Part shown: one piece after another, positions 24,306-44,579 of the stretch
Layout of the letters: every line of letters begins with the position of its first letter
Position numbering within the stretch: the first letter of the stretch is position 1
Assembly: GCA_043821645.1 (NCBI GenBank)
Contig: JBDRCO010000076.1
Coordinates: 1 to 64,000, forward strand
From: Pseudomonadota bacterium
GTDB taxonomy: Bacteria > Myxococcota > JACRCW01 > JAFGSX01
Length of the DNA: 64,000 nucleotides
Reading direction: 5' to 3'
Program-made: the position numbers and the translations under genes
The notes under the pieces: generated by a model
Databases searched by the model: none
What the model saw: only the letters and a program-made list of their open reading frames with translations
What the model was told of the DNA's origin: nothing

Positions 24306-24695
24306 GGGATCTCCTCACCTCAGGGCCTGGTCGAACTTCTATCATCACTCGTCACCTGGCACGAGGCATCCACGGGGGTATCGGCCACTTTGATGATCTT
24401 CATTGTGAGCATGCTCACCAAAAATTCCACACCACTTCGGCGACGGTGATTGTGATCGTGCGCACGCTGGCGGCGAGTGCGATCCCGGTCACAGAACACC
24501 GCAAGTTTGCGGGAGTGTTGCCTTCGCTCCCGCAGCCCGCGGCCGGCGGCACACAGGGAATGTTGGTTTTGAGTGCGACCTGGTGCGTGCTGTGGCTTCC
24601 TAAGCGTGACGCAGTGTGCCGCACCAGGCCCAAAGGGCGGCGAGGGCAGATACACACGACGGACGCGGGACGGGCCCGCGCTGGCGAGGGAAGAC

Positions 24696-27600: not shown

Positions 27601-30600
27601 ACATCAACGGAGGCGTTGGTACTGTGACCGCCGATGCCAGCGCGGTGCGTGATACCGAGACCTCAACGGCCAATCTCGAGGTGTGCTGGGACTGGATGAA
27701 CTCCGGCACCTGTTCCGCGTTCTCCACCGACAAGATCGCCGTCAAGAACGACTTCGCGGCGCCGGCACCGGGTCCCACGACTTACACCATCCGCATGGTG
27801 GTACGCGACGCAGTGGGCCAGACCCACGCGACCACCCGCGACGTGACCTTCACGTCCATCCAGTACATCGGTGGGCAGACCATCGACACCACTCTCTGGT
27901 ATGGCACGGTGGTGATCACCGGTGACGTCACCGTGGGCGCCACCGCCACCCTGACCATTGCCGAAGGTACACAGATCCTGTTCGTGCGTACGGACCAGGA
28001 CAACAACGGTATCGGTGACTACACCTTTGACGTGGCCGGCACCCTGATCGTCGAGGGCACCGCGAACAATCCCGTGGTGTTCACCGGACAGGACTCGGGC
28101 GCCAAGGTGCCCGGCGCCTGGGACCGCATCATCCTCCGCGGCAGTGCACCGTCGACCCTGACCCATACCGTGGTCGAGTATGCGGACGTGGGCATCGAGG
28201 CGCGCAACGGATCGATCCTGGACCATGTCACCGTGCGCTCGACGCACGACGAGTGCATCCGTCTGAATAACGCCGACAACGCCGTGCTCAGCGACGTCAC
28301 CGTCACCGAGTGCGGATCCAACGGTGTCAGCGTCTACAACGGCACCACGGGTGCCAGTGCGAGCAACCTCAGCAGCACCGTCAACGGCGCCAACGGCCTG
28401 TCGCTGTGGCAGAGTTCGGCCATCACCGTTGTCGGGGCAACGCTGGCGAACAACACGGTAAATGGCGCGAGGGTGGGGACTGGGTCGACGCTGAACCTGA
28501 GTGACGCGGATGTGGAGGATAATGATGGGGCTGGTATCGCCTTCCTGTCGTCGGCCGGAGGGGCCGTCACGCACAACCAGATTCACCGAAACGGGCTCGA
28601 GGGGATAGGGCTGTATGCCGATTCGAGTGGCAACCCAGCTCCTGTAGTCAACTACAACAATATCTACAGCAATGGCAGTTCCGGAACGATGCGCGTCCAG
28701 ACCATCAACACATCCGCGACACTCACAGCGAGCTACAGCTCCTGGGGGTCCTCTGTCACCTCGTCGACCTGGAGTGTCCCGGGCGGCTCGACGATCCGAC
28801 GTGCGTACATCAACTATGACGAGACCGACAATAGTTCCAACTACGTGACAGGAACACTGCAGGAGGGGGGAGGAAGCACGATTCGAACCTTCACCTCTGA
28901 TTTCGCGGGATGGGTGTATGTGGATCCCAGCGTGACCTCACTTCGCGTTCGGGTTGCAGACAGTGGGTACGGTTCTGCGGTGGACACCATCACTGCCAGT
29001 CAGGTCGAGGTGGTCTGGCCGGATGGATCCTCGGAGGTCGTGGCGATAGTGGATTCCGGGACCGTGGATCTCCGCTACAACTACCTGGGAGTGTTTCCCG
29101 GTGTGCTTTCGCACGTGGAACTGTCCCGGCCCGATGCCGTCAATCTTCAGGGTTTTGTCGGATCTCTTTATGACTCGAGCTGGGACAGGGGCATATACCT
29201 GGCGGGACCAATCACGACCCGGACACTCGACGGCACATTCGTCGTGACAGGTGACATCACGATCGCTGCTGGAGCGGTGGTGAGCGTCGAAGCTGGGTCG
29301 ATCATCCAGTTTGTCAAGCACGACCAGGACGGCGACGGAGACGGGGATTTCTCGATCACGTCCTCTGGACAGCTCAACCTGACTGGGGCTCAGGGCGACG
29401 AGATCGTTGTGGACGGTTACGGTGCGGTGGCAGGAAACGCGTTCCAGACTGTGCTGCTCGCAGGTTCGACCGGTGAGGCCAGTCACTGGAGTCACGTGAC
29501 CGTGTCCAAGGGGCGGCAACCTGTGCGAATCACAGGTAATAGCGCTTTGGACCACATCACTGTTGCGGGAGGATCTGGTGATGGCGTCAAGGCCGAGAAC
29601 TCGACGGGAGTGAGTATCTCCGATTGCGTGGTCTCCGGCGCGGGCGGAACGGGGTTCCTGCTCAACAACGCAGACTCGGCCATCCTGAGTGACCTGACCA
29701 GTGAAGCAAACAGTGGCAATGGTTTGACCATACAGGGGGGATCGACTGGTGTGTCGGTGAGCAAGCTGCTGAGCCGATACAATACGGGCTCAGGTGTCTA
29801 CGTTCTTGGTGGCTCCACGCCGTCGATTGTCGACTCGACGATCCGAGAAAACACGGCGCACGGCATCCACGTGGACGGATCGACTCCTTCCATCATGTAC
29901 AACCTCCTAGCATACAATGGAGGAAGTGGTCTGCGCATCGATGGCAGCGGGACCTCCACAGGGCAGTACAATATCGTCAAATTTAACGAGAACAGTGGTG
30001 TTTCTGCCTGGTCCAAGGCCGGTGCGACCCCCGCCGTGACCGTCAGCCATTCAAATATCTACAGTAACTCAACCAACGGTAGCAGCATCATCTTCGCAGA
30101 GACACCCTCCTCGACCCTCACAGCATCGTACTCCTCCTGGGGGTCCTCTGTGACATCCTCGACTTGGACCGCAGCCGATGGCAGGTCCATTCGACGGGTC
30201 TTCGTGAGTTACGACGAGACAGACAATAGCTCCAACTACGTCACAGGAACCTTGCTGACAGGTGGAGGCAGCGTGATCCAGAACTTCTCGTCGGACTTCA
30301 ATGGCTGGGTTTACGTGCCAGCGGGGACGATGTCGCTCAGGGTACGCGTCGCTGATAGCGGGTATGGATCCGCCACAGACAGCATCACGGTGACGACGGC
30401 TGAGATGTGGGAGGAAAGTGGGACAAGCAACTATGAACTAGTCGCGGTCACGGACAGTGGAACCGTCGGTGCTGACCACAACTTCTGGACTTCAAATGTT
30501 GGCGACGTGCCGTCCAAGATCTTCGAGGCCAGGACTGGTACAGTTGACTACTCCGGCTACACGGGAAGCGAGTATCCCAGCGGATCTGTCACGCAGGTCG

Positions 30601-30614
30601 GGCCCCGGCCGTAG
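24696..30614 (+). CDS. Giant surface lipoprotein (~1970 aa): 11 Cys-rich repeats, lamin-tail domain, Ig and PKD domains, two beta-helix blocks each with a CUB-like insert
   Basis: Lipobox LAAC; CGxY/FDxDxCxEW repeats; ILINEVLYDATG..FVELWG (LTD); VRVDYYVD (Ig); PVAAFT (PKD); parallel beta-helix repeats. Confidence 0.85.
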   Translation: MMSTCNRSWMAISVLLTTALAACPEPPDTPNPPRRDAAHYDAGSVDTLGTDSAVLDSAGQDLVAADSAAPDVTSADSASPDAGGPDAWEPSCEDECSEGSQVCDTAVDGYRICGQYDLDDCLELSPTVACAPAFSCTAGVCVPDCRDECPVSGTLCQDENTVLACGNFDTDACLDLGGAVACGTGKKCEAGQCVDTASTCSDECADGETTCFGDAVRTCGAFDSDSCRDFSMPVTCGQGLVCQGGACTSFCEDECSSAGVNECVGNGVRSCGNYDADGCLEWGPITGCQAPQFCTAGVCSVTCTHECDSVGQALCVTGGVAMCGEFDGDPCRDLSTPTPCPAGYACGSGGLCSATCTNDCALGTPPRCGTDGFSLETCGNFDGDVCSEWGGAITCPGGATCTGGSCDTPCTDDCTPSGLTECISGDNATQTCGQYDLDSCYEWAARSACEAWQVCSTDQCVLGVTPATILINEVLYDATGTDNAAGTLVFVELWGPASQSLDGYELVGVNGNGGVDYNRIALTGEVTGTDGYFVIAHPQAAASLLALADITKNEVDYQNGPDAIQLRWRGRLVDAVGYGVFGSGDVFAGEGTAAQAAPPSGAGKSLTRSASHADTDVNSADFSVALAPSPRANPPDCLDECPTLNATRCSSSQVQTCRADVDADSCLEWTAAANCPISGESCVGTTCQAPVCSDECPTLNATECVGLQIRTCRTDVDSDSCREWTAAGNCPVGGQTCNSLTDQCETPTCSNDCNPGTDLPQCGGTNGQQIRSCVVDGDPDSCYEWSTYSDCTTGGQVCIGGTCTTPCNHECPSTGATRCAINGQIETCGNYDTDACREWSAPANCGGSLTCIVDSCQAPSAPEVRLISPQGTVQTTQGNVHRILVDATAAPGRSIVRVDYYVDNVKKGETTAAPHEYFYTVPANAPTNSTQSVQAKAVDNQNVTGSSSYAYLDVKNDAPVAAFTAIITNINGGVGTVTADASAVRDTETSTANLEVCWDWMNSGTCSAFSTDKIAVKNDFAAPAPGPTTYTIRMVVRDAVGQTHATTRDVTFTSIQYIGGQTIDTTLWYGTVVITGDVTVGATATLTIAEGTQILFVRTDQDNNGIGDYTFDVAGTLIVEGTANNPVVFTGQDSGAKVPGAWDRIILRGSAPSTLTHTVVEYADVGIEARNGSILDHVTVRSTHDECIRLNNADNAVLSDVTVTECGSNGVSVYNGTTGASASNLSSTVNGANGLSLWQSSAITVVGATLANNTVNGARVGTGSTLNLSDADVEDNDGAGIAFLSSAGGAVTHNQIHRNGLEGIGLYADSSGNPAPVVNYNNIYSNGSSGTMRVQTINTSATLTASYSSWGSSVTSSTWSVPGGSTIRRAYINYDETDNSSNYVTGTLQEGGGSTIRTFTSDFAGWVYVDPSVTSLRVRVADSGYGSAVDTITASQVEVVWPDGSSEVVAIVDSGTVDLRYNYLGVFPGVLSHVELSRPDAVNLQGFVGSLYDSSWDRGIYLAGPITTRTLDGTFVVTGDITIAAGAVVSVEAGSIIQFVKHDQDGDGDGDFSITSSGQLNLTGAQGDEIVVDGYGAVAGNAFQTVLLAGSTGEASHWSHVTVSKGRQPVRITGNSALDHITVAGGSGDGVKAENSTGVSISDCVVSGAGGTGFLLNNADSAILSDLTSEANSGNGLTIQGGSTGVSVSKLLSRYNTGSGVYVLGGSTPSIVDSTIRENTAHGIHVDGSTPSIMYNLLAYNGGSGLRIDGSGTSTGQYNIVKFNENSGVSAWSKAGATPAVTVSHSNIYSNSTNGSSIIFAETPSSTLTASYSSWGSSVTSSTWTAADGRSIRRVFVSYDETDNSSNYVTGTLLTGGGSVIQNFSSDFNGWVYVPAGTMSLRVRVADSGYGSATDSITVTTAEMWEESGTSNYELVAVTDSGTVGADHNFWTSNVGDVPSKIFEARTGTVDYSGYTGSEYPSGSVTQVGPRP

Positions 30615-33585: not shown

Positions 33586-34599
33586 ATGCCTGACGCACGA
33601 GGACAGTGGCACCTGCTGACGCTTGGCGACTCCATCCTGTGGGGACAGGGTCTGCGCGACGCAAACAAGATCGTGGTGCGCACGGCCCAGTCCCTGTCCC
33701 AGGCGAAGGGCGTCACCGTGAACCTTCACGTCTACGCGCACAGCGGGGCCTGGATCTGGAACCAGGTCGTGCAGCCTCCGCACCCTGACGACCCGAGCAT
33801 GGCCAGCCTTGCCCAGTCCGGTCGCCTGACCCTGCCGGGGAACGACAGCACCCGCGATTTCATCGGCGAGCGGCCGCTGCCCGAACCCTACGTGTGGAGC
33901 CAGCTCCACCAGGCCAGCCTGGACCTGGCGCACCTGGGCGTGAGCCCCGATGTGGTGCTGCTCGACGGAGGCATCAACAACATCGGTGTGTTCGAGATCG
34001 TCAATTCCACCCACGATGCTGCGTGGATGCAGCGCCAGGTGGACGCTCTGCGCGGATGGATGTACGAGCTTCTGCTGGGCGTGCACGGGCACTTTCCTGC
34101 CGCGCACCTCGTCGTCACGGGCTACTACCCTGTGTTCAGCAACCTGTCGTTTGCGCTGGGTGCGGACCTGGCGTCGCGGACATTCATTCACGCTGTCACC
34201 GGGCTCAACGCCTTCGGCGTGCTGCACCCCATGCAAGACCTGGTGGCCCTGTCGCGGACTTTCTCCCAGGGCATTCACGCCAACCTGAGCGCGGACGTGC
34301 AGCGCTTCAATGGCCAGGTCGGGGCCTCGGTGGCGGCCTATGCGCCGCCCCGATTCACTGCGGCCAACGCCTATGCGGCACCCCGCTGCCTGCTGTGGCA
34401 GCTCAACCTGAACCCACTGCATTTTCTCGAACCCATGGACGATGCGGTGGCTGAGCGCGAGGCAGCCCTCGGTGGCGCACAGGGTCTGGAACGGCAGGTT
34501 GGCTTGCGCTGCTCGGCCGGACACCCCAATCGCGAGGGCGCCGAGCGCTACCACGAGGCCGTGGTGAAGGCGCTGAAGGCACTCGGCGTGTTGCCTTGA
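33586..34599 (+). CDS. SGNH/GDSL hydrolase
   Basis: LGDSILWG (block I), AHSGA (II), DGGINN (III), GHPN (V). Confidence 0.85.
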   Translation: MPDARGQWHLLTLGDSILWGQGLRDANKIVVRTAQSLSQAKGVTVNLHVYAHSGAWIWNQVVQPPHPDDPSMASLAQSGRLTLPGNDSTRDFIGERPLPEPYVWSQLHQASLDLAHLGVSPDVVLLDGGINNIGVFEIVNSTHDAAWMQRQVDALRGWMYELLLGVHGHFPAAHLVVTGYYPVFSNLSFALGADLASRTFIHAVTGLNAFGVLHPMQDLVALSRTFSQGIHANLSADVQRFNGQVGASVAAYAPPRFTAANAYAAPRCLLWQLNLNPLHFLEPMDDAVAEREAALGGAQGLERQVGLRCSAGHPNREGAERYHEAVVKALKALGVLP

Positions 34600-34679
34600 G
34601 CCTTGCACCCCTTGTGCGATCCTGCCCAACCGGGTGGCGTGCACGCGTGCACGGCCACTCATGCTCATGGAGGCGCGCG

Positions 34680-36521
34680 ATGTCTCGCTGGATCCATTCC
34701 GTGCTGGCTCTGTCGGCCCTGACCCTGGCGTGTCCCGCATCCAGGGATTCGTCCCCTGCGACAGCACCCTCCCCGGGAGAGACCGCTGCCACCCCGACGC
34801 CGACCCTTGCCGAGGCCGAGTTTTGGATGAAAGAGGTCGAGGCTGAATTGCTCACGCTCAAGGTGGCCCAGGAGCGCGCCATGTGGGTGCAGGCCACCTT
34901 CATCACCGACGACACCGACATCATCGTGGCCGACGCCCAGGTGGCGCTGATGAAGTTCGTCGGCGAGAAGGCCATCGAGGCCACCCGCTTTGATAGGCTG
35001 GATCTGCCCGCAGAGCTGAAGCGCAAGATCGAACTGCTCAAGCTCGAGCTCGACCTGCCCGCGCCCTCGGATCCGGCCCAGCGCCAGGAGCTGGCTGATA
35101 TCGCCACCCGCATGAAGAGCAGCTACGGCAAGGGGACCTACTGCTCGCCGCGCCACAGGGGCGCGTGCCTGAGTCTGGGCGAGCTGTCCCGCGTCCTCGC
35201 CGAGAGCCGCGACTGGGACACCCTGATCGACGCGTGGCAGGGCTGGCGCAGCGTGTCCATCCCGATGCGCCAGGACTTCCCGCGCTATGTCGAGCTGGCC
35301 AACGCCGGAGCACGCGAGCTGGGCTTTGCCGACCTGGGGGCGCTGTGGCGCTCGCGCTACGACATGCCGCCCGAGGCCTTCTCGGCCGAGGTGGAGAGGT
35401 TGTGGCAGCAGATGAAGCCCCTGTACGAGCAGCTGCACTGCATGGTGCGCGCGCGCCTGGCCACGCGCTACGGCGGCGACAAGGTCCCGGCTGACCAGCC
35501 CATCCCGGCGCACCTGCTGGGCAACATGTGGAGCCAGGAGTGGGGCGGCATCTACGATCTGGTGGCGCCCCCGAGCCAGGGCAGCCTCGACATCACCAAG
35601 CTGCTGGCGGCCAAGAAGACCGACGAACTTGGCATGGTGCGCCAAGCCGAGGCCTTCTTCTCGTCGCTGGGACTTGAAAAGCTGCCGGACACCTTCTGGA
35701 CCCGATCCATGTTCACCAAGCCCCGGGACCGCGACGTGGTGTGCCACGCCAGCGCCTGGGACATCGACTGGAAGGACGATCTGCGCATCAAGATGTGCAT
35801 CGAGCGCACCGCCGACGACTTCATCACCATCCACCACGAGCTCGGCCACAACTACTACCAACGCGCCTACAAGGACCAGCCCGTGCTGTTCACCAACGGC
35901 GCCAACGACGGCTTCCACGAGGCTCTGGGCGACACCCTGGCCCTGTCGGTGACCCCGACCTACCTGCGCCGCATCGGTCTGCTCGACCGGGACGTGCCCG
36001 ACAGCCTGGATCCGATGCTGCGTCTGGCCCTGGACAAGCTCGCCTTCATCCCCTTCGGCCTGGTCGTCGACACCTGGCGCTTCGACGTGTTCTCGGGCCA
36101 GGTCAAGCCCGAGCAGTACAACGCGCACTGGTGGGAGTTGCGGCGGCGTTACCAGGGTCTGCGTTCGCCCGTCGAGCGCAGCGAAGCGGACTTCGACCCG
36201 GGCGCCAAGTACCACGTGGCCGCCAATGTGCCCTACACCCGCTACTTCCTGGCGCTGGTGCTACAGTTCCAGTTCCACCGGGCCCTGTGTCGCGCGGTCG
36301 GGCACCAGGGCCCACTGCACCAGTGCACCATCCACGACAGCAAAGTGGCAGGCCAGAAGCTCGACGCCATGATGCGCATGGGTGCGAGCCGACCCTGGCC
36401 CGAGGCGCTGAAGGCGTTGACGGGGGAAGACACCATGGATGCCAGCGCCGTGATCGACTACTTCAAGCCCCTGCTCGACTGGCTGGCCGAGCAGAACAAG
36501 GACCAGAAGTGCGGCTGGTGA
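34680..36521 (+). CDS. M2 family peptidyl-dipeptidase A (ACE homologue), lipoprotein
   Basis: Lipobox TLAC; IPAHLLGNMWSQEW; VVCHASAWD; HHELGH zinc motif; GFHEALGD; FDPGAKYHV; PYTRYF. Confidence 0.95.
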   Translation: MSRWIHSVLALSALTLACPASRDSSPATAPSPGETAATPTPTLAEAEFWMKEVEAELLTLKVAQERAMWVQATFITDDTDIIVADAQVALMKFVGEKAIEATRFDRLDLPAELKRKIELLKLELDLPAPSDPAQRQELADIATRMKSSYGKGTYCSPRHRGACLSLGELSRVLAESRDWDTLIDAWQGWRSVSIPMRQDFPRYVELANAGARELGFADLGALWRSRYDMPPEAFSAEVERLWQQMKPLYEQLHCMVRARLATRYGGDKVPADQPIPAHLLGNMWSQEWGGIYDLVAPPSQGSLDITKLLAAKKTDELGMVRQAEAFFSSLGLEKLPDTFWTRSMFTKPRDRDVVCHASAWDIDWKDDLRIKMCIERTADDFITIHHELGHNYYQRAYKDQPVLFTNGANDGFHEALGDTLALSVTPTYLRRIGLLDRDVPDSLDPMLRLALDKLAFIPFGLVVDTWRFDVFSGQVKPEQYNAHWWELRRRYQGLRSPVERSEADFDPGAKYHVAANVPYTRYFLALVLQFQFHRALCRAVGHQGPLHQCTIHDSKVAGQKLDAMMRMGASRPWPEALKALTGEDTMDASAVIDYFKPLLDWLAEQNKDQKCGW

Positions 36522-36593
36522 CGACGTGAACCAGCGGGTGGGCGCTTGCGGAAGACAGCCCGCGCCCGGCCATCTTTCACTCGACGCCCGCCC

Positions 36594-37652
36594 ATGACCG
36601 ACGCCAGCACCGTCAAGCTCCTGGTCCTGTCCGACACCCACCTCGGCTTCGATCTGCCGGCCCGCCCGCGCGTCGAGCGCCTGCGCCGAGGCGAGGACTT
36701 CTTTGCCAGCTACCAGCGGGCCCTGGCGCCGGCGCTGGCGGGCGAGGTGCACGCTGTGCTGCACCTCGGCGATCTGCTGTACCGCAGCAAGGTCCCGGCC
36801 TGGCTGGTCGAGCGCGCCGTGGCGCCACTTCGCCAGGTGGCCTCCCAGGGCGTGCCCGTGGTGTTGCTGCCGGGTAACCACGAGCGCTCGCACATCCCTT
36901 TCTCCTTGCTCGCGGCCCACAAGGGCCTGCACATCGTCGACAGGCCGCAGACCCTGGTGCTCGAGTTGGCGGGTCAGCGCGTGGCCCTGGTGGGATTCCC
37001 GAACTACCGCGACGAGGTCCGGCAGCGCTTCCCCTCGCTACTCGACGCCACGGGTTGGCAGCGAAGCCCCTGCGACCTCAGGCTGCTGTGTCTGCACCAG
37101 TGCATCGAGGGCATGACCGTGGGGCCCAGGAACTTCATGTTCACCACGGCGAACGATGTCATTCGCAGCCGTGACCTGCCCCGGGGCTTCGCCGCTGTCC
37201 TGGCTGGTCACGTGCATCGGCACCAGGTGCTGCGGCACGACCGACAGGGTCAGCCCCTGGCGGCTCCGGTGCTGGTGCCTGGCTCCATCGAGCGCACGTC
37301 CATGGCCGAGGCGGGCGAGGTCAAGGGCTACCTCATGGTCGAGTTCGTGCCCGGGAGTGGGGGAGGGCGACTGCGGAGCCACCGCTTCGTCGAGCTGGCC
37401 ACGCGCCCCCTGGTCGTGGTCCGGATTCCGGACTCCCTGATCGCTGCCGAGGGCCCGCTGACGACGTGGATCGCGACGACCCTGGCAGCGCTGCCCGCGA
37501 ACGCGGTGGTCACAGTGCGCTGGAACCAGCCCGCCGACGGCTTGCCGAGCTCTACTCTGCGCGCCGCCAGGCTGCGTGCCCTGGCGCCGCCCACCATGAT
37601 CGTCGAGCTGGCCAGGCCATCCCTTCGGGCGGACGGAACCAATCGCATCTGA
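36594..37652 (+). CDS. SbcD/Mre11-like metallophosphoesterase nuclease
   Basis: SDTHLG, GDL, GNHE, LHQ, AGHVH, PGSIERTSMAE. Confidence 0.85.
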   Translation: MTDASTVKLLVLSDTHLGFDLPARPRVERLRRGEDFFASYQRALAPALAGEVHAVLHLGDLLYRSKVPAWLVERAVAPLRQVASQGVPVVLLPGNHERSHIPFSLLAAHKGLHIVDRPQTLVLELAGQRVALVGFPNYRDEVRQRFPSLLDATGWQRSPCDLRLLCLHQCIEGMTVGPRNFMFTTANDVIRSRDLPRGFAAVLAGHVHRHQVLRHDRQGQPLAAPVLVPGSIERTSMAEAGEVKGYLMVEFVPGSGGGRLRSHRFVELATRPLVVVRIPDSLIAAEGPLTTWIATTLAALPANAVVTVRWNQPADGLPSSTLRAARLRALAPPTMIVELARPSLRADGTNRI

Positions 37653-37677: not shown

Positions 37678-39321
37678 CTAGAGCAGATCGATGGCCGCCG
37701 CCCAGGCCCACAGCTCCAGGCCAGCCAGGTCGCCGTAACGCAGATCCGCTCGCAGGCCCACCTCTCCCTTGCCCAGGAAGCGGAAGCTTCCGCGCAGGCC
37801 TGTTGTTCCCGTGGCCAGGATCTGGCGGCTCTGGTCCAGCAGGTAGACACCACCGGACTGGCTGAGGCCAAGCCGCAGGCCGTCGACGGGCTGCGTTCCC
37901 AGGGTCGCGCTGACCAGGTGGCTGCCGACGGGACTCCATTCGCCGCGATACAGCAGCTGCAGCGAGCTGGACCACCACGGCAGGCGGGTCCACAGCGAGG
38001 GCATCACCCAGGCACGGGGCCAGCTGCCGTCCTCGCTGACGCCGCCGCCACCCGCCAGCGAGGCGCCAGCGTACAGCGCACCCAGGCGGCCGCCCGCGTC
38101 CAGGGCCAGGCCTCCATCATAGAATGCAGCGTCGGGTGTGAGCTGCCAGGCACCCATCAGGTTGTCTGGCCACAGCAGGCGATGATCGAGGCGCCGGGCG
38201 TTGGCACCGAGCTGCACGGCCCCCAGTCGCCACGAGGCGCTGAGCACGGCGCGATCCGGCACCAGGGCCGGGCGACCCTTGCCGTCGTCGACGACCAGGA
38301 CGGTGCCCAGGTCCGTGGACAGGTGCCAGCCTGCATCGCCGTCGAGATCCAGGCTCAGCGAGGCCTCACCACCGTCGCTGCCACGACCGATGTCCCACAG
38401 GCTGCTCAGGTCGCCCTGGTAGCGCAGGGAGGCCCAGCCCCAGTGCGCCCCGCCGTCTACACCGAGGGCCGCCAGCGGTCGTTGCAGCGAGGGCACCAGG
38501 TCCGTGCGCGTGGGTTGCAGCCCGGCCACCAGGTGCAGGTGCGGACCGTCCTCGGAGGCGTGCCAGGTCACACCCGCGGCGTCGACGAGTCCATAGCGGA
38601 GCCCGGTCTCAGCGTGGCGGCCCAGCTGCACCGAGAGCGCGTCTATGGGTCTGTAAGCCAGCGTGGCGCGGTTCACTTCGAGCCAGCCCCAGGACCCCTG
38701 GCGAAAGCGGCCCTGCGCCGGGCTCACCGGCTGGCCGGCGGCCGACGCCAGGACGTCAAGCTGCCAGCGACCGGCGGTGTCCAGGGGCCCTTGCACGGCC
38801 AGGTCCAGCTGTTCGCGCTGGGTGATGCCATTGGCGGAACCGAAGGCGATCCAGGTGGCGCTGCGCAGGTGGGCGCTGTTGCGCAGGGGCGTCCAGGTCA
38901 CGATGGCGCGCTGGCCGGCAAAGCCGACCTTGGAGAAGGTCCCGGCGTCATGGACCCAGGTGCCGCTGGCGCTGGCTCGCAGCGATGTCGCCGGCTGCGA
39001 GGCCGCTTCGGCGACTGCGGTGCTGCGAAAGCTGACCGGCATGCCCGGACGGAGTGGTCGCTTCTGGTCGAGGACCCGGGCCACGGCGCTGTGCGGCGAG
39101 ACCTCCAGCACCTCGAGGCTCGCCACCTTCTTGCGATCCACCTTGACGACGAGACGGCTGCCGGGTTGCAGGCCGCGCTCGCTACCGAGGTCCAGGTAGG
39201 CCGCGTCGGTGGTGACGTAGGTGATGCTGCCGCGCACGGGCTGCGACCTGGCCTGTGCCAACGCCCCGGCGCACAGCAGCAGAACCGCACTCAGGAGCTG
39301 CAGTCGGTGGCGGTTCTTCAT
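37678..39321 (-). CDS. Probable outer-membrane beta-barrel with small N-terminal beta domain (porin of the cytochrome cluster)
   Basis: Signal peptide AQA; alternating amphipathic strands rich in W/Y/L/G; LGRH..VDAAGV motif; last gene of the multiheme operon. Confidence 0.6.
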   Translation of the reverse strand: MKNRHRLQLLSAVLLLCAGALAQARSQPVRGSITYVTTDAAYLDLGSERGLQPGSRLVVKVDRKKVASLEVLEVSPHSAVARVLDQKRPLRPGMPVSFRSTAVAEAASQPATSLRASASGTWVHDAGTFSKVGFAGQRAIVTWTPLRNSAHLRSATWIAFGSANGITQREQLDLAVQGPLDTAGRWQLDVLASAAGQPVSPAQGRFRQGSWGWLEVNRATLAYRPIDALSVQLGRHAETGLRYGLVDAAGVTWHASEDGPHLHLVAGLQPTRTDLVPSLQRPLAALGVDGGAHWGWASLRYQGDLSSLWDIGRGSDGGEASLSLDLDGDAGWHLSTDLGTVLVVDDGKGRPALVPDRAVLSASWRLGAVQLGANARRLDHRLLWPDNLMGAWQLTPDAAFYDGGLALDAGGRLGALYAGASLAGGGGVSEDGSWPRAWVMPSLWTRLPWWSSSLQLLYRGEWSPVGSHLVSATLGTQPVDGLRLGLSQSGGVYLLDQSRQILATGTTGLRGSFRFLGKGEVGLRADLRYGDLAGLELWAWAAAIDLL

Positions 39322-39323
39322 GC

Positions 39324-40082
39324 TCAATCGCCTGCCACGCCGCGGGGGTGACATTGCAGACAGAGAGGACTCTCGCAGCGGTAGTTGGCGACCTCCTGGT
39401 GGTGGCCATTGGTGATCGAGCACAGGTGCACGTGGCAGTCGATGCACGAGAAGCTGTCATAGCCGTTCACGTGGCAGTCGGTGCAGGCCACGTCGCGGTG
39501 TCGACCGCTGGCGATGGGGAACAGGGGATCGTGTGCGGCGCGGCTCATGGCCTCGCCGCGCGGGTGGCAGCGGTAGCAGGCGTCCGAGGCGTACTGGTAG
39601 CCGGACACGCCATTGTGCGCGGGATCCACGATGCTGGCCGCGTGGTCGTGGCAGTCGATGCAGGAGAAGCCCCGGTAGTCGGTCACGTGGCAGTTCTCGC
39701 AGGCCATGCCGCCGTGGGCACCGGTGACGATGGGAAACAGCACCTCGTGGTCGGCGCGGCCCAGGGCGATGCCCGACGGGTGGCAGCCGTAGCAGCCCGT
39801 GGCGTCGTACTCGTAGCCGACGACGCCTGCGTGGTGCGGATCCGTGCTGGCCTGATCGTGCTCGTGGCAGCTGATGCAGGTGAAGCGGGTGAAGGTCTCG
39901 AAGTCACCGTGGCAGGCGTCGCAGTCCGCACCTCCGTGGGCGCCCTCGAGCACCGGGAAGATGGGGGTGTGGGTGGCCCGGGTCACCCGCTCGCGCTGCA
40001 CCTTGAAGAAGGGCTCGTAGCAGCCGAGCACCCCGGTGACGACAAGAACCAGGCTCGCGGTGCGCACATGCCGGGCTGTCAT
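39324..40082 (-). CDS. Nonaheme c-type cytochrome lipoprotein (three triheme modules)
   Basis: Lipobox VLGC; 9 CxxCH (CDACH, CISCH, CYGCH, CENCH, CIDCH, CYRCH, CTDCH, CIDCH, CLQCH); FPI..G.H modules. Confidence 0.9.
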   Translation of the reverse strand: MTARHVRTASLVLVVTGVLGCYEPFFKVQRERVTRATHTPIFPVLEGAHGGADCDACHGDFETFTRFTCISCHEHDQASTDPHHAGVVGYEYDATGCYGCHPSGIALGRADHEVLFPIVTGAHGGMACENCHVTDYRGFSCIDCHDHAASIVDPAHNGVSGYQYASDACYRCHPRGEAMSRAAHDPLFPIASGRHRDVACTDCHVNGYDSFSCIDCHVHLCSITNGHHQEVANYRCESPLCLQCHPRGVAGD

Positions 40083-40858
40083 CGGCCCTCCTCGCCATGC
40101 GGATGGCACTCGTAGCACTTGCGCTGGGCGCACTGGTAGCCGGCCACGCCCTCGGACTGGTGCCTGCGGTCCATGGTGCTGCAGCGGTGGCAGCGGGTGC
40201 AATCCGCAGTGAAGCTGGCGCAGGCATTGACCGCGAGGGAGACCGGACCGCTGTGGCAGTTCTGGCAGGCGATGCCGCGGTGCGCGCCCGCGGCGATGGG
40301 GAAGCAACGATCGTGATCGGGGAACACCGCGAGCGTCCACCGCGTGGCGCTGTGGCAGCGGGCACAGTCCTCGCCCACCCCCGCTTGCTGGTGGTCGATG
40401 GAGCGACCCCGGGTGCGCAGCAGATCCTGAGCGTGGCAATCCTTGCAGCGGGCGGACAGCCCGCCCATGGCCCGGTCGGCGCGCTGCCTGTGGCAGGCAT
40501 CGCAGGGGATCACGGCGTGCCGGCCGTACAGCGGGAAGCGGCTGCGGGCGTGGGCGCGCACCCCGTCTCCCTGGCGGAAGTCGTCACTGTCGTGGCAGCG
40601 CGCGCACTCCCGGCCCAAGCTCCCGGCGTGCACATCGACGTGGCAGCTGCTGCACACAGGATCCAGCCGCAGGTGCGTCGCGTTGGCGTGGCAGGCGCGA
40701 CAGGGGATGCCCTGATGGCGACCTCGAAGCGGCAGGCGCGTCTGCTCGTGGTCGAACTGCACATCGGTCCAGCGGGTGGTCGTGTGGCAGGCGGAGCAGT
40801 CACCGCTCTGATTCGCAGGCTGGGCTGCCAGCCACAACAGGAAGGCGAGGCCGCTCAT
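40079..40858 (-). CDS. Decaheme c-type cytochrome
   Basis: Short hydrophobic N-terminus; 10 CxxCH; FDH..PL.G.H..C modules. Confidence 0.92.
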   Translation of the reverse strand: MSGLAFLLWLAAQPANQSGDCSACHTTTRWTDVQFDHEQTRLPLRGRHQGIPCRACHANATHLRLDPVCSSCHVDVHAGSLGRECARCHDSDDFRQGDGVRAHARSRFPLYGRHAVIPCDACHRQRADRAMGGLSARCKDCHAQDLLRTRGRSIDHQQAGVGEDCARCHSATRWTLAVFPDHDRCFPIAAGAHRGIACQNCHSGPVSLAVNACASFTADCTRCHRCSTMDRRHQSEGVAGYQCAQRKCYECHPHGEEGR

Positions 40859-42645
40859 CGGGCACCTCCGCCACCTGGCTGAGCATGCACGTCCTGGTGG
40901 CAGCCGTCGCAGCGCCGGGGCACGCCGCGGTACCAGGCCACGACGCTGCCGCCCTCAATCGGCACCGAGGGGTGACAGCGGGCGCAGGGCACGCGCGCAT
41001 GGGCGCCGGTCAGGGTGATGTCGCCGAACGCAGGGTCGCCGTGGACGAAGCGTGACGGCTTGAACTTCTGCGTGTCATGGCAGCGCTCGCAGGTGAGGTC
41101 GCCGAACTGGCCGCGGTGCACATCCGTGTGGCAGGTGGCGCAGACCCGGGCCGTGCCCCGGTACTCGACCCGCTCCTGCCGCCGCTGGTGGCAGCGGGCG
41201 CAGCTCGCCTCGCGGTGCTTTCCGGTCAGGGCAAAGCGGCTGTCCCGGTCATGGTCGAACCGAGGCTGGGCAAAGCTGTCGAGCTGGTGGCACGCACTGC
41301 ATGGCTTGACGGGCTCGCCGCGGGCGAACTGCCCACCGTGCACGTCGCGGTGGCAGCTGTCGCAGCGCGTCGACGTGACCTCGGGCCGGCGCAGGCGGGT
41401 GAAGTTGTACAGCTCGGTGCGGCGCACCGGCTCGGGCGCATCGCGCACGCTCGCTGGCAGCTTGGCCGAGAAGCGCTCGGGATCCGGCGGATGGCAGGCA
41501 TTGCAGGCCACCGCGCGGTGCGCACCCTCGAGCGGGTAGGGGCCCTTGTCGTGCCGCGCCAGGTTGTAGCGCGGAGGATAGAATCCCTGCTCGTCGTGGC
41601 AGCGTTCGCACGCCGTGCCGCGCCCGCCCTCGTCAGCGACCTGCCCGAAGTGCGCATCGCGGTGACAGTCGTCGCAGCGCTCGAAGGCGAGGCCCCGGGT
41701 CTGCAGGCCGCCACCCTTCTTGGCGGGATGGCAGGTCCCGCAGCGCGCGACCTCGTGCAAACCTCGCAGCGGGAAGCGACTCTTGTCGTGGAAGCTCTTC
41801 TGGGCCTTGCTGATGTGGGTGCGCGACCAGCTGGTCTCGACGTGGCAGCGCTCGCAGCGCTGGCCGAACTTGCCGCGGTGCACATCGCTGTGACAGGACG
41901 CGCAGCCTCGGGCTCCCACCCCGCGATAGTCCACCACCTGGGTCGGCTTGACCGGAGGCAGGATGGCCGAGGCCGTCGCCTCGACCTCCCGCGCCGGGTG
42001 GCACTTGAGGCAGGAGGTCTTGGCGTGAGCGCCGCGCAGTTTGTAGACGCTGGCGTGGTCGAAGCCCCGCGCTGGCGCAAAGGCCGTGGCATCGTGGCAG
42101 CGCTGGCAGGCCTTGCCCAGCTGGCCCCGGTGCTCGTCGAAGTGGCAGGCGTTGCAGCTTCGATCGAGCCCGAGGTAGGTCGCCGGCTCCTTGCCGTCGC
42201 CCAGACGCTTGCGCAGCTCTGGCGCGCGCACCAGGGCCGCCCGGTGGCAGGCCGCACAGGCTGCCTTGGCATGCTTGCCGTCGAGAGCCCAGCCACTGCG
42301 CTTGTGGTCGAACTGCTCGCGGCTCCCCTTCCACTCGGTCAGGGAGGCGTCGATCCCGCGGTGGTCGCGGTGGCAGCTCAGGCAGCCCTTGTCCTTGACC
42401 TCGGCCTGGGCGTGCATGCCGCGCTGGCGGGCGATGCCCTGCGCGAGATCCCGATGGCACTCCAGACACAGCTTGCCATCGACCTTGGCGCCGAGCTCGT
42501 GGCACTTCGTGCATTGCCGCAAGCCCTCAAGCTTGGTGTGGGGGCGGGCCAGGGGGCCCGGCGACAGCACCTGCGCCGACAGCGCGGCGGGCAGCACCAC
42601 CACGACGATCGCCAGGCCTCGGGCTGTGTGCTTCAGAAGATCCAT
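40855..42645 (-). CDS. 20-heme periplasmic c-type cytochrome
   Basis: Signal peptide LSA-Q; SPGPLARPH; 20 CxxCH counted; repeated FDH..F.L.G.H..CxxCH..CxxCH.D.H.GQ..CxxCH. Confidence 0.92.
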   Translation of the reverse strand: MDLLKHTARGLAIVVVVLPAALSAQVLSPGPLARPHTKLEGLRQCTKCHELGAKVDGKLCLECHRDLAQGIARQRGMHAQAEVKDKGCLSCHRDHRGIDASLTEWKGSREQFDHKRSGWALDGKHAKAACAACHRAALVRAPELRKRLGDGKEPATYLGLDRSCNACHFDEHRGQLGKACQRCHDATAFAPARGFDHASVYKLRGAHAKTSCLKCHPAREVEATASAILPPVKPTQVVDYRGVGARGCASCHSDVHRGKFGQRCERCHVETSWSRTHISKAQKSFHDKSRFPLRGLHEVARCGTCHPAKKGGGLQTRGLAFERCDDCHRDAHFGQVADEGGRGTACERCHDEQGFYPPRYNLARHDKGPYPLEGAHRAVACNACHPPDPERFSAKLPASVRDAPEPVRRTELYNFTRLRRPEVTSTRCDSCHRDVHGGQFARGEPVKPCSACHQLDSFAQPRFDHDRDSRFALTGKHREASCARCHQRRQERVEYRGTARVCATCHTDVHRGQFGDLTCERCHDTQKFKPSRFVHGDPAFGDITLTGAHARVPCARCHPSVPIEGGSVVAWYRGVPRRCDGCHQDVHAQPGGGGAR

Positions 42646-44579
42646 CGGTACCCCAGCAGCAGCGATACCCCCACGTGCAGGGCGATGGTCAGTACCAGCA
42701 GCAAGGCCAGGGCCACGTGAAACAGCCGCCAGGCGCGCAGCAGCGTCTTGAACAGAGCGCTGCCCGCGGCGGCCATGCCAAAGCGATGGGTGGTCTGGAT
42801 GCGGCCGTAGATGAATCGCCCCACCACTCCCGTGGCGACGACGGCGCCAAGGGCGATGAAGGTGGCTTGGGCGATGAGGTTCTTGCTCTGAAAGGCCGAG
42901 TGAAAAGCGATCACCGCGGGCGTGAACAGGCCGATCACCGCGTGCACCGTGAGCCAGCGACGCAGCGAGCCGGTCCCACGTAGCAGAGCCAGACGCTTGC
43001 GTGCGGCATAGGTGAAGTTGGTCAGCATGACCAGGGTCGCCGCGATGCCGATGCCGTGTCCCCAGCTGCCGCTCGAGCGCAGCCGCTCGTGCAGGGGCGC
43101 AGCCTCGCGCGCCAGGACGTCCAGCACGTAGTAGTCGCGACCGAGCCAGGCCAGCGCCGAGACCACGGCCAGACCCAGGGCGGACAGGCCGAGGCCAAGC
43201 CAGGGACCCGCCTCGACGTGATCGCGCAGGTGCAGGTGCACACCCCGGGGCGCGTCCCGAGGCGGCTGACCGAACCAGCGGTCCGTGCGAATCCCGTGCT
43301 GCTCCAAAAAAGGCGTGGGCAGCTCGCCACCCAGGGCCGCGAGCACGAAATCGATGTCCTGGGCGCGCTCGCCGTCCGGGCCACGCAGCCGCACCTTGTC
43401 CGTCGTCACGGCCAGCACGTCGCTGCGCAACAGCAGCTGTAGCTGACCGGCGTCGTGCAGCGCCTCGACGCGCTGGCGGTTGGGCGCCTTGGCGCGAAAG
43501 AAGCTGTCTCCGCGATAGCACACGGTCACCCGGGCGCCGTGTTCGACCAGACTGCTGGCAGCCTCCAGGGCGCTGTCGCCACCCCCCACCACCAGCACCC
43601 GCTGCCCGCTGTACTGCTTGGGCTCGATCAGGTGGTAGGCCACGTGGGGCAGCCCCTCGCCGTCGACGCCCAGGCGTCGCGGTGTGCCGCGCCGGCCAAT
43701 GCCGAGCACGATCTTGCGCGCGGCCAGGGGCCCGGTCGAGGTGTGCAGCACGAAGTTGTTGTCCTCACCCTCGAAGCGTTCGAGCCGGGTTCCTGCCCGG
43801 ACCTCGAGTCGGGTCTCGGCCAGCACTTCCTGCCACACCTGCAGCAGCTCCTCCTTGGTCATCTCGGCGCGGTGTACCCGCCCGAACAGCGGCACGTCGA
43901 TGGGCTCGGTCATCACCAGCTTCTGGCGCGGGAAGTGGGCAATGGTGCCGCCCAGGGCGGGCTCCTGTTCGAGCAAGGCATAGCTCGCCCCGGCTTCCAG
44001 CGTGGCCAGCGCCGCGCCCATGCCCGCAGGTCCCGCGCCGACGATGGCGACGTCGACACAGCGTGCCGGTCGCGCACCTTCCAGGTGCCGCACCGCATCC
44101 TGGGCGGCGGCCACGCCCTGCAGGATGGCATTGCGGATCAGACCCATGCCGCCCAGTTCGCCGGCGATGTAGACGCCCGCTCGGCTGGTCTCGAACTGGG
44201 GTGTCAAGAAGGGGATGTCCTGGCCGCGCTCGGCGCTGCCGAAGACCAGGCGGATGGCGCCCACCGGGCACTCCACGGCGCAGCGACCGTGGCCGATGCA
44301 GGCCGCGCCGTGCACCAGGCGACCGGCCCCGCCGACGATGCCCAGCACGTCGCCTTGGGGGCAGGCGGCGACGCAAGCCTGGCTCGAGATGCAGCGATCA
44401 GTGTCGATGACGGGGTGCAGTGAGGCTGGAACGTGCAGGCCCGCAGCCTCGACCGCCTGCATGCGCTGACGCTCGGTGCGATCGCGCCGCCGCGCTCGCA
44501 GCAGCAGCAAGCCCGCGGTGACGACGAGGATCAGGGCCAGCGCCCAGCCCGCGACGAGGGTTTCGAACGACAGGTCCAT
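42633..44579 (-). CDS. Membrane-bound NAD(P)H oxidoreductase: TM anchor, atypical ferredoxin, permuted TrxR/YpdA-like FAD domain, His-rich (cytochrome b-like) membrane domain
   Basis: CISSQACVAACP and CIGHGRCAVECP; ETSRAGVYIAGE; VGAGPAG; VGGGDSA..YRG; TM segments with GHG, WLTVH, AFH, WRLFH, IALH. Confidence 0.85.
   Translation of the reverse strand: MDLSFETLVAGWALALILVVTAGLLLLRARRRDRTERQRMQAVEAAGLHVPASLHPVIDTDRCISSQACVAACPQGDVLGIVGGAGRLVHGAACIGHGRCAVECPVGAIRLVFGSAERGQDIPFLTPQFETSRAGVYIAGELGGMGLIRNAILQGVAAAQDAVRHLEGARPARCVDVAIVGAGPAGMGAALATLEAGASYALLEQEPALGGTIAHFPRQKLVMTEPIDVPLFGRVHRAEMTKEELLQVWQEVLAETRLEVRAGTRLERFEGEDNNFVLHTSTGPLAARKIVLGIGRRGTPRRLGVDGEGLPHVAYHLIEPKQYSGQRVLVVGGGDSALEAASSLVEHGARVTVCYRGDSFFRAKAPNRQRVEALHDAGQLQLLLRSDVLAVTTDKVRLRGPDGERAQDIDFVLAALGGELPTPFLEQHGIRTDRWFGQPPRDAPRGVHLHLRDHVEAGPWLGLGLSALGLAVVSALAWLGRDYYVLDVLAREAAPLHERLRSSGSWGHGIGIAATLVMLTNFTYAARKRLALLRGTGSLRRWLTVHAVIGLFTPAVIAFHSAFQSKNLIAQATFIALGAVVATGVVGRFIYGRIQTTHRFGMAAAGSALFKTLLRAWRLFHVALALLLVLTIALHVGVSLLLGYRWIF

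Follow-up and report, generated by a model that had tools for sequence, protein, structure and literature searches.

Can reducing equivalents pass from cytoplasmic NAD(P)H to the outside of a bacterial cell along a protein wire that has no need of quinones? This question is raised by a five-gene operon in a window of 64,000 nucleotides (the whole stretch analysed, positions 1 to 64,000 of contig JBDRCO010000076.1, assembly GCA_043821645.1) from a bacterium deposited as Pseudomonadota and placed in the Myxococcota by GTDB. To our knowledge, every characterised Gram-negative porin-cytochrome conduit draws on the quinone pool; MtrCAB and Geobacter Pcc are fed from quinol by CymA, ImcH or CbcL. 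The operon encodes a membrane flavoprotein (gene A), three multiheme cytochromes c (B, C and D) and a predicted outer-membrane barrel (E), and our judgement, held with slightly better than even confidence, is that electrons run outward from NAD(P)H through FAD, Fe-S clusters, two b hemes, a 30-heme wire and the barrel to a lipoprotein cytochrome.

In this proposed route, NAD(P)H, probably NADPH, would hand hydride to FAD in a thioredoxin reductase (TrxR)-type ferredoxin:NAD(P)+ reductase (FNR) domain of A, and single electrons would cross the pair of fused Fe-S clusters and reach first the b heme on the cytoplasmic side, next the one on the periplasmic side, in the manner of NADPH oxidases (NOX) and ferric reductase domain (FRD) proteins. 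From the b hemes they would enter the 20-heme periplasmic cytochrome B, pass to the 10-heme C, probably lodged within the 22-strand barrel E, and leave C through lipoprotein D for an extracellular acceptor such as Fe(III), humics, an electrode or a partner cell; quinones would not be obligatory. We favour this reading because flavoprotein, ferredoxin and membrane domain lie in one chain with four histidines kept, and because A, B (with C) and E are co-inherited in the 51-locus and genome counts given below.

The five-gene cassette and its conservation

The operon lies on the minus strand at positions 37678-44579 (6.9 kb), and every open reading frame (ORF) has an ATG start:

Gene A, 44579-42633, minus strand: 648 amino acids (aa); ferredoxin, flavoprotein and five-helix membrane domain
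Gene B, 42645-40855, minus strand: 596 aa; 20 CxxCH; putatively periplasmic cytochrome c with a Sec-type signal peptide
Gene C, 40858-40079, minus strand: 259 aa; 10 CxxCH; cytochrome c
Gene D, 40082-39324, minus strand: 252 aa; 9 CxxCH; lipobox-like VLG-C21; lipoprotein cytochrome c
Gene E, 39321-37678, minus strand: 547 aa; signal peptide and predicted outer-membrane beta-barrel

Genes A and B overlap by 13 nt, B/C and C/D share ATGA overlaps, and 2 nt separate D from E; B, C and D together hold 39 CxxCH motifs. ORF and motif counts confirm what the sequence-only reading had reported of the five coupled genes, their coordinates, their overlaps and the 20, 10 and 9 hemes. Chance ORFs were rejected because the gene set is kept across dozens of genomes. 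One 198-nt contig from one RNA run is identical to part of D, which does not by itself demonstrate transcription.

Among 301 genomes of the phylum, A has matches in 83 (E <= 1e-60), the membrane-domain profile in 92 and the barrel profile in at least 76; these three tallies include the host genome (G000) and G195, both of which are excluded from all other counts. Sixty loci, picked for contig room, were fetched from the A matches, and nine in which A is split or of a long type (L076-79, 81, 84, 86-88) were set aside. In the remaining 51 fused-A loci, B is present in 50, a barrel in 47 and a D-type protein in 25, and B and C together carry at least 30 hemes in 49, as 20 + 10 in 35 and as a single protein in 14. 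Eight more loci have a 28-30-heme cytochrome, seven of these with a D-like lipoprotein start, and two of the four barrel-less loci have a barrel elsewhere on the same contig, beyond the fetched stretch. At the genome level, the barrel occurs in all 66 genomes with a full-length A, and an A match in 73 of the 74 with a barrel, kin among these not being independent; the same arrangement recurs in eighty metagenome loci wherever the contigs have sufficient length. On these locus and genome counts, the core of the cassette is A, 30 hemes and the barrel, accompanied by a variable lipoprotein. The expectation that the genes would co-occur elsewhere was thus borne out (49/51 and 47/51 loci for the hemes and the barrel), and the inside-to-outside gene order is present at this locus without being invariant, as the set-aside loci and a plasmid of Emticicia oligotrophica demonstrate. 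Apart from D-like lipoprotein cytochromes, no conserved neighbour of functional note was found in the 60 loci.

Among named proteins, the nearest relatives of A bear the labels Myxococcota, Anaeromyxobacter, Myxococcus or Deltaproteobacteria. In five of the set-aside loci the cassette is split, the flavoprotein gene being divergent from a membrane-protein gene and a 30-heme gene. A split cassette with its own ccsA is also found on plasmid pEMTOL02 of Emticicia oligotrophica (Bacteroidota; NC_018749.1, L096:10938-22736), whose gene set comprises ccsA, the membrane protein, the flavoprotein, 23- and 40-heme cytochromes and a distant barrel (E-values in a seven-protein comparison: 8e-28, 1e-101, 2e-104, 4e-113 and 4.5e-7). 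The barrel, B or A is split across frames in L052, L054, L064, L066, L084, L089 and L095, through assembly errors or decay. A scan of genome contigs with patterns taken from unconserved peptides of A gave one unrelated locus, whose genome had no membrane-domain match.

Gene A and the proposed entry of electrons

An AlphaFold2 model of A (40-sequence alignment; predicted local distance difference test score, pLDDT, 83.9) begins with a helix, continues with a ferredoxin domain and a Rossmann flavoprotein, and ends in five helices, and a family scan recovered Fer4 and Pyr_redox_3 domains. The chain is divided as follows (minus strand, residues of A):

Residues 8-26: N-terminal membrane anchor
Residues 55-112: 2x[4Fe-4S]-type ferredoxin with the atypical ligand motifs CxxSxxCxxxCP and CxxHxxCxxxCP
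Residues about 128-438: YpdA/TrxR-type FAD/NAD(P)H domain, no CxxC disulfide
Residues 457-641: five-helix membrane domain, with H546, H560, H621 and H635 as putative ligands of two b hemes

In the ferredoxin, Ser and His replace the second Cys of the motifs in 117 of 119 homologues. The best sequence match of residues 172-448 is TIGR04018 (YpdA, E 2.6e-41), and a fold search placed YpdA and TrxR-type FNRs first (7a76: Z 22.0, root-mean-square deviation (rmsd) 3.9, 268 aligned), with 3ab1 and 5ygq, which we take to be TrxR-type FNRs, among the matches; the search with the whole model returned flavoproteins only. A CxxC within the 40 residues preceding the NAD(P)H-binding motif is found in 0/119 homologues. 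Since the best matches are YpdA and TrxR-type FNRs and the CxxC is lacking throughout, we interpret the domain as most likely an NAD(P)H:Fe-S reductase; a basic motif of YR type that follows its second nucleotide-binding loop (118/119) hints at NADPH as the substrate. A thioredoxin reductase function was rejected on the same missing redox-active CxxC. YpdA/Bdr and the TrxR-type ferredoxin:NADP+ reductases are the closest relatives of this region in sequence and fold, but bacillithiol disulfide reductase activity of the YpdA kind was rejected as well: the TIGR04018 score is 141.5 bits against a cut-off of 339.9, and A is a membrane-bound, ferredoxin-fused protein whose C-terminal FAD-binding segment has apparently moved to the front, while YpdA is a soluble protein of about 325 aa.

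That rearrangement was traced as follows. Profile and structure alignments of A leave the last 45-50 residues of YpdA uncovered, and a segment similar to this C-terminal part of YpdA sits at residues 128-165, directly behind the ferredoxin. The best HMM score of the moved segment (1.9 bits) does not exceed that of shuffled sequences (best 6.2), the HHalign P is 0.007, and residues 115-170 matched no solved structure in a sequence search. Because the alignments stop short and four of five paralogue alignments of the segment land on the C-terminal GxFAaGD motif, we retain circular permutation, which would place the Fe-S clusters beside the flavin, as probable on weak statistics. In one family of genomes, the A homologues of L080, L082, L083 and L085 reach 905-976 aa through a low-complexity insert of about 150-230 aa within the NADPH-binding domain, with barrel and D genes upstream of A.

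The membrane domain carries W542-x3-H546-x13-H560 in helix 3, W617-x3-H621-x13-H635 in helix 5 and T583-G-V-V-G587 (T-G-x-x-G) in helix 4. The four histidines recur in 118-119 of 119 homologues of the fused form, 59-61 of 61 of the stand-alone form, 15/15 Fe-S-fused and 4/4 plasmid homologues, and would be expected to bind two b hemes. By the positive-inside rule, loop charges assign a cytoplasmic location to the flavoprotein domain and to both the TM2-3 and the TM4-5 loop, which would put H546 and H621 on the cytoplasmic and H560 and H635 on the periplasmic side. HHalign aligned the domain with MsrQ/FRD over 120 columns with both His helices in register (P 0.0018, probability 15%), compared with P 0.013 for hydrogenase-type cytochrome b and P 0.21 for NarI; Pfam Ferric_reduct (PF01794) scored E 0.86 on A and E 8.9e-4 on one homologue. 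These values are suggestive of a domain nearer MsrQ/FRD than hydrogenase cytochrome b or NarI. The position of the first Arg in the MsrQ-type RR motif is taken by H546, so that A retains all four His, like NOX. Against solved structures, a sequence search with the membrane-domain profile gave coiled-coil noise only; ESM Atlas matches scored below 0.9 and serve as a lead only, and a word-indexed search with the alignment yielded chiefly fragments. The proposal of a cytoplasmic NAD(P)H/FAD/Fe-S input fused to a diheme-b-type membrane domain is supported by domains, motifs and model.

That this domain draws its electrons from the cytoplasm is argued best by its repeated pairing with different cytoplasmic redox inputs, namely the TrxR type, FNR-type FAD/NAD/2Fe-2S proteins, and cyclic nucleoside monophosphate (cNMP)/poly-Fe-S proteins. 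Stand-alone homologues are about 290 aa long (of ten looked up in clusters, one carries the name Polyangia), and distant homologues occur on 58 plasmids. In all four plasmids opened, a cytoplasmic redox gene lies directly upstream of the membrane-protein gene, and both partners scanned are FNR-type FAD/NAD/2Fe-2S proteins of a fold unrelated to the A flavoprotein. These plasmids (L097-L100; Bradyrhizobium, Variovorax, Alteromonas and Spirosoma) encode the FNR-type oxidoreductase, the membrane protein and a small multiheme cytochrome, and no barrel; three of the four trios lie within copper-resistance or hydrogenase regions, and the Bradyrhizobium oxidoreductase gene is interrupted by IS3. At 15 further loci of the phylum (L183-L196, L200) the membrane domain is fused to poly-Fe-S domains with no TrxR-type flavin domain, a degenerate cNMP domain being also present in two of eight such proteins scanned (examples of the fusions: L189:8107-10179, L199:4428-6789). 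Such flavin-less fusions are possibly ferredoxin-fed and nucleotide-regulated, and the variety of partners indicates that NAD(P)H is not the sole feed of this class of membrane domain. A relatives of about 980 aa stand beside 33-36-heme cytochromes at L086:10577-13534, L087:6238-9306 and L088:10906-13671; they consist of an N-terminal extension, Fer4_11, an A-type flavoprotein domain, an extra Fe-S domain and the membrane domain.

The published model for this motif is quinone-linked. The conduit types PCC3 and PCC4 were defined with the same five-helix W-x3-H-x13-H membrane motif, and a link to quinones through a quinone-active cytochrome b was proposed (He 2017, PMC5566968). Applied to the present cassette, the diheme domain would exchange electrons with menaquinone, A would be an NAD(P)H:quinone oxidoreductase and/or a quinol:cytochrome c oxidoreductase, and the flavoprotein would be one of several feeds. 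We hold this to be rather unlikely, and a number of observations nevertheless speak for it or otherwise weigh against the quinone-free outward route. PCC3 is described without a flavoprotein in the accessible parts of He 2017 (PMC5566968), and the related MsrQ binds ubiquinone though NADH-fed (PMC12525009). His508, located where TM2 begins on the periplasmic side, recurs in 119/119 fused and 44/61 stand-alone homologues and could mark a quinone site. Fe-S proteins with diheme-b anchors are the usual quinone interfaces (FdnHI, NarHI). The FRD assignment itself is weak on the HHalign probability and Pfam E-value given above, flavin-less fusions adjoin a 30-heme cytochrome at 5/20 loci, and about a third of loci lack D within the stretch that was fetched. 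Finally, genome G011 (92% complete) has two wire-and-barrel copies and no A or membrane-domain match, and is either a natural input-less variant or an assembly gap; its copies, at L181:5998-10234 and L182:6531-11680, comprise a 30/33-heme wire and a barrel, one with a 9-heme D-like gene.

On the other side, the membrane-domain homologues inspected are nearly always accompanied by a cytoplasmic redox partner, which would be superfluous for a quinol-to-wire link, and FRD/MsrQ resembles the domain profile more closely than NarI or hydrogenase cytochrome b does. Measured potentials of MsrQ contradict a quinol donor (PMC12525009). The host genome, moreover, has quinol-type inputs elsewhere (one NapC/NrfH match and six NrfD matches), so an A-type module is not required as a quinol link.

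Predicted wire, barrel and direction of flow

All 40 Cys of B lie within its 20 CxxCH motifs, in a repeat-built chain of 29.8 aa per heme that matched no solved structure in a sequence search. Non-motif His number 23 in B, 11 in C and 15 in D, for 20, 10 and 9 hemes; these suffice for bis-His ligation of every heme, and bis-His hemes would, as expected, fit wires rather than catalytic cytochromes. B has a signal peptide without a lipobox, and the lipobox pattern occurs in 2/50 B, 0/36 C and 23/25 D-type homologues. Because B and C form one 30-heme protein in many loci, C is regarded as the distal continuation of B and is the candidate barrel-threading cytochrome. D, whose homologues carry 7-57 hemes and whose gene is optional, is the candidate surface terminal. 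At L056:712-8130, a D-type lipoprotein of 2472 aa with 57 CxxCH directly follows the barrel gene. MtrA spans about 100 Å per ten hemes (He 2017, PMC5566968), and by analogy the 20 hemes could span the periplasm and the 10 hemes the barrel.

The model of E (38 syntenic homologues and one database match, 18-69% identity; AlphaFold2 pLDDT 82.9) shows residues 29-98 as a small beta domain at the N-terminus and folds residues 147-546 into about 22 strands. Each of the 50 fold matches listed is a membrane beta-barrel, the best of them aligning over 360 residues with Z 19.2 and rmsd 4.6; no plug domain takes part in the alignments, and no Mtr/Omb porin stands among the matches listed. The model thus predicts a plug-less outer-membrane beta-barrel of about 22 strands, in line with the barrel suspected earlier from the sequence. 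E belongs to no Pfam or NCBIfam family and matches ESM Atlas clusters in which the commonest phyla are Planctomycetota, Acidobacteriota, Gemmatimonadota, Myxococcota and Bacteroidota. A complex prediction for E and C scored 0.01, which is no answer, and was counted neither for nor against their association.

The electrons could also serve a non-mineral end point, being delivered at low potential to the periplasm or surface for repair, metal detoxification, assimilation or O2 reduction (NOX-like), or stored in a heme capacitor, with a barrel that may chiefly export or hold the lipoprotein cytochrome. We consider this distinctly improbable. It would accord with the occurrence of the cassette in Emticicia oligotrophica (plasmid) and a Myxococcus sp. 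(protein), which we take to be aerobes, with the barrel-less relatives in copper-resistance and hydrogenase plasmid regions, and with an outward flow that conserves no energy. A constant 30 hemes in B and C and a co-inherited plug-less barrel, however, far exceed the needs of a periplasmic reductase, neither a transporter nor a terminal reductase is conserved beside the cassette across the 60 loci, and all hemes look bis-His.

An electron crossing the inner membrane outward is pulled by, and discharges, the membrane potential, and NADPH oxidation leaves a proton inside. The outward route would run strongly downhill, yet the module would conserve no energy, because outward electrons depolarise the membrane and leave protons inside, and it would most likely be a redox valve or reductant-export line rather than a respiratory coupling site. 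An inward route to NADP+ would conserve energy but calls for a donor whose potential is close to about -470 mV or lower. The sequence-only reading had allowed either direction; the two are not equal, given that the potential favours outward flow and that inward flow demands such a donor.

As an inward conduit, the wire would draw on an external donor of very low potential (Fe(0), a cathode or a partner cell) and pass its electrons directly to NAD(P)+, generating proton-motive force. TrxR-type FNRs do operate towards NADP+ in phototrophs, but the named cassette hosts are presumably heterotrophs. PCC3, for its part, was first found in Fe(II) oxidisers (He 2017, PMC5566968). Inward transfer would oppose the membrane potential, and neither Fe(II) minerals nor c hemes of the usual bis-His kind are negative enough in potential to supply the required donor, which leaves this direction very improbable in our estimate and the outward route from NAD(P)H as the preferred one.

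Described conduits, host context and biological meaning

The cassette fits PCC3 by description, in porin, periplasmic cytochrome, membrane motif and gene order, the named PCC3 proteins having been compared by description only. PCC3 consists of four genes with no flavoprotein in its described form, occurs in Proteobacteria and was modelled as quinone-linked (He 2017, PMC5566968). The likeness extends to a porin, a candidate extracellular multiheme cytochrome, a periplasmic one (median 21 hemes; B has 20), a two-motif five-helix protein with S/T-G-x-x-G, a gene order corresponding to E-D-(C)-B-A, repeat-built cytochromes of fewer than 30 aa per heme, the 22 strands predicted for the Leptothrix PCC3 porin (PMC5566968; E about 22) and an inner-membrane protein of about 300 aa (stand-alone homologues here about 290 aa). 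A porin of at least 20 strands, a large cytochrome with few aa per heme and a two-motif five-helix protein are found here in E, B and, fused, A; the candidate for the extracellular cytochrome is D, a 9-heme lipoprotein with homologues of 7-57 hemes. The differences lie in the fusion of the membrane domain to a ferredoxin-flavoprotein and in a periplasmic wire of 20 + 10 hemes. Supplementary Table 6 of He 2017 (PMC5566968) lists multiheme cytochromes with a motif protein and an "other redox protein" (412-425, 608-702 and 796-805 aa), sizes that resemble the three partner types seen here. The function of PCC3 is unverified (Hoover: PMC9900912; 10.1101/2025.02.27.639646).

The second described cluster is ptdABCDEFG, encoding a porin, multiheme cytochromes, a FAD/NAD(P) oxidoreductase, a cNMP-[4Fe-4S] protein and a ferric-reductase-like membrane protein; its function was stated to be unknown, and the available parts of the report propose no NAD(P)H-to-surface path (Elbon 2024, 10.1101/2023.11.21.568154). 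From their parts lists, PCC4 and ptdABCDEFG are probably the same cluster. Its FAD/NAD(P) oxidoreductase, Fe-S and FRD-like membrane parts all have counterparts among the domains of A, and Fer4_11, a Pfam family named for PCC4, is present in the L086-L088 long forms, which may form a bridge to PCC4/Ptd. In contrast, PCC4/Ptd has three periplasmic cytochromes of 4, 5 and 10 hemes, no lipoprotein or extracellular cytochrome and separate genes, where the present cassette has 20/10/9 hemes, a lipoprotein and no cNMP domain in A.

With NOX and FRD proteins (SpNOX, PMC11564096; MsrQ, PMC12525009; MsrQ-like, PMC8238504), which provide precedent for NAD(P)H-to-outside flow through such domains, A would share the path from cytoplasmic NAD(P)H through flavin and membrane b heme(s) to the outside. 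NOX enzymes differ in having an FNR-fold FAD/NADPH dehydrogenase, no Fe-S clusters and O2 or Fe(III) as the acceptor, whereas A joins a TrxR/YpdA fold to a pair of Fe-S clusters, the whole being coupled to the multiheme wire and the barrel; the two H-x12/13-H helices are present in A, PF01794 homology being weak. The barrel, decaheme and lipoprotein cytochrome follow the logic of MtrCAB (Shewanella) and Geobacter Pcc (OmaB-OmbB-OmcB), but no cassette protein scores over the cut-off for MtrA/DmsE, MtrB or MtrC models, and the MtrB barrel has 26 strands. Membership in MtrCAB/MtoAB was rejected (B scores 34.9 bits for TIGR03508, the cut-off being 192; E without a Pfam or NCBIfam family). The cassette would thus work like a NOX/MsrQ input joined to an Mtr-like wire.

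A Ferrigenium preprint reads a trio of nonaheme, five-helix and Fe-S proteins as quinone-linked (10.64898/2026.01.22.701106). Identity with the peat extracellular electron transfer (EET) clusters EET1-4 was rejected, these having 8-13 hemes and, as far as the available text goes, no flavoprotein (10.64898/2026.05.27.727921). The cassette is not described in the accessible portions of PMC2330069, PMC5317091 or PMC5615132. A literature search, outside which most subscription journals lay, found no experimental study of the cassette and no proposed NAD(P)H-to-surface path. The earlier belief that similar clusters exist without characterisation therefore holds in part: PCC3/PCC4 and ptd have been described and are uncharacterised in the sources available, and a precedent for the design exists. 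The novelty lies in the fusion of flavoprotein and ferredoxin to the membrane domain, which argues against the published quinone model.

The host genome (94.7% complete) has 22 ORFs with at least four CxxCH motifs, one ORF with a WWD motif, presumably CcsA-type, cytochrome bd, one partial heme-copper-family match and one NiFe-hydrogenase-family ORF; RnfD and futalosine MqnA gave no match in this incomplete assembly. In a further region (contig C106:3345-17877), a NapC/NrfH-type match and two cytochrome-b fusions accompany seven multiheme ORFs of 5-12 hemes, and 24- and 16-heme ORFs lie at C51:147343-150975 and C53:34702-37722. Within the window, positions 24573-30614 (plus strand) encode a secreted, Cys-rich protein of 2013 aa that is built of repeats, starts like a lipoprotein and has beta-helix-like regions. 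A Peptidase M2 (ACE-like, E 4.5e-221) and a metallophosphoesterase at 34596-37652 (plus strand) converge on the cassette end; neither of these two is a conserved neighbour.

We put forward tentatively, at less than even confidence, the broader view that such cassettes form a widespread quinone-independent class in which cytoplasmic NADPH (or ferredoxin) is wired to the surface through a fixed 30-heme wire, that PCC3/PCC4 have been misread as quinone-linked iron oxidases, and that the system dumps reductant in redox stress and is reversible on Fe(0) or a cathode, giving NADPH and proton-motive force. If true, an NAD(P)H-flavoprotein input fused to membrane-crossing hemes would be a second conduit design, and the use of PCC3/PCC4 genes as iron-oxidation markers would change. 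The cassette is compact, occurs in cultured genera and is also found on a plasmid with its own ccsA, which makes the system tractable, and it would offer bioelectrochemistry a direct electrode-to-NADPH interface. For the organisms themselves, extracellular electron transfer would be tied to anabolic redox balance instead of respiration, which would account for such wires in aerobes.

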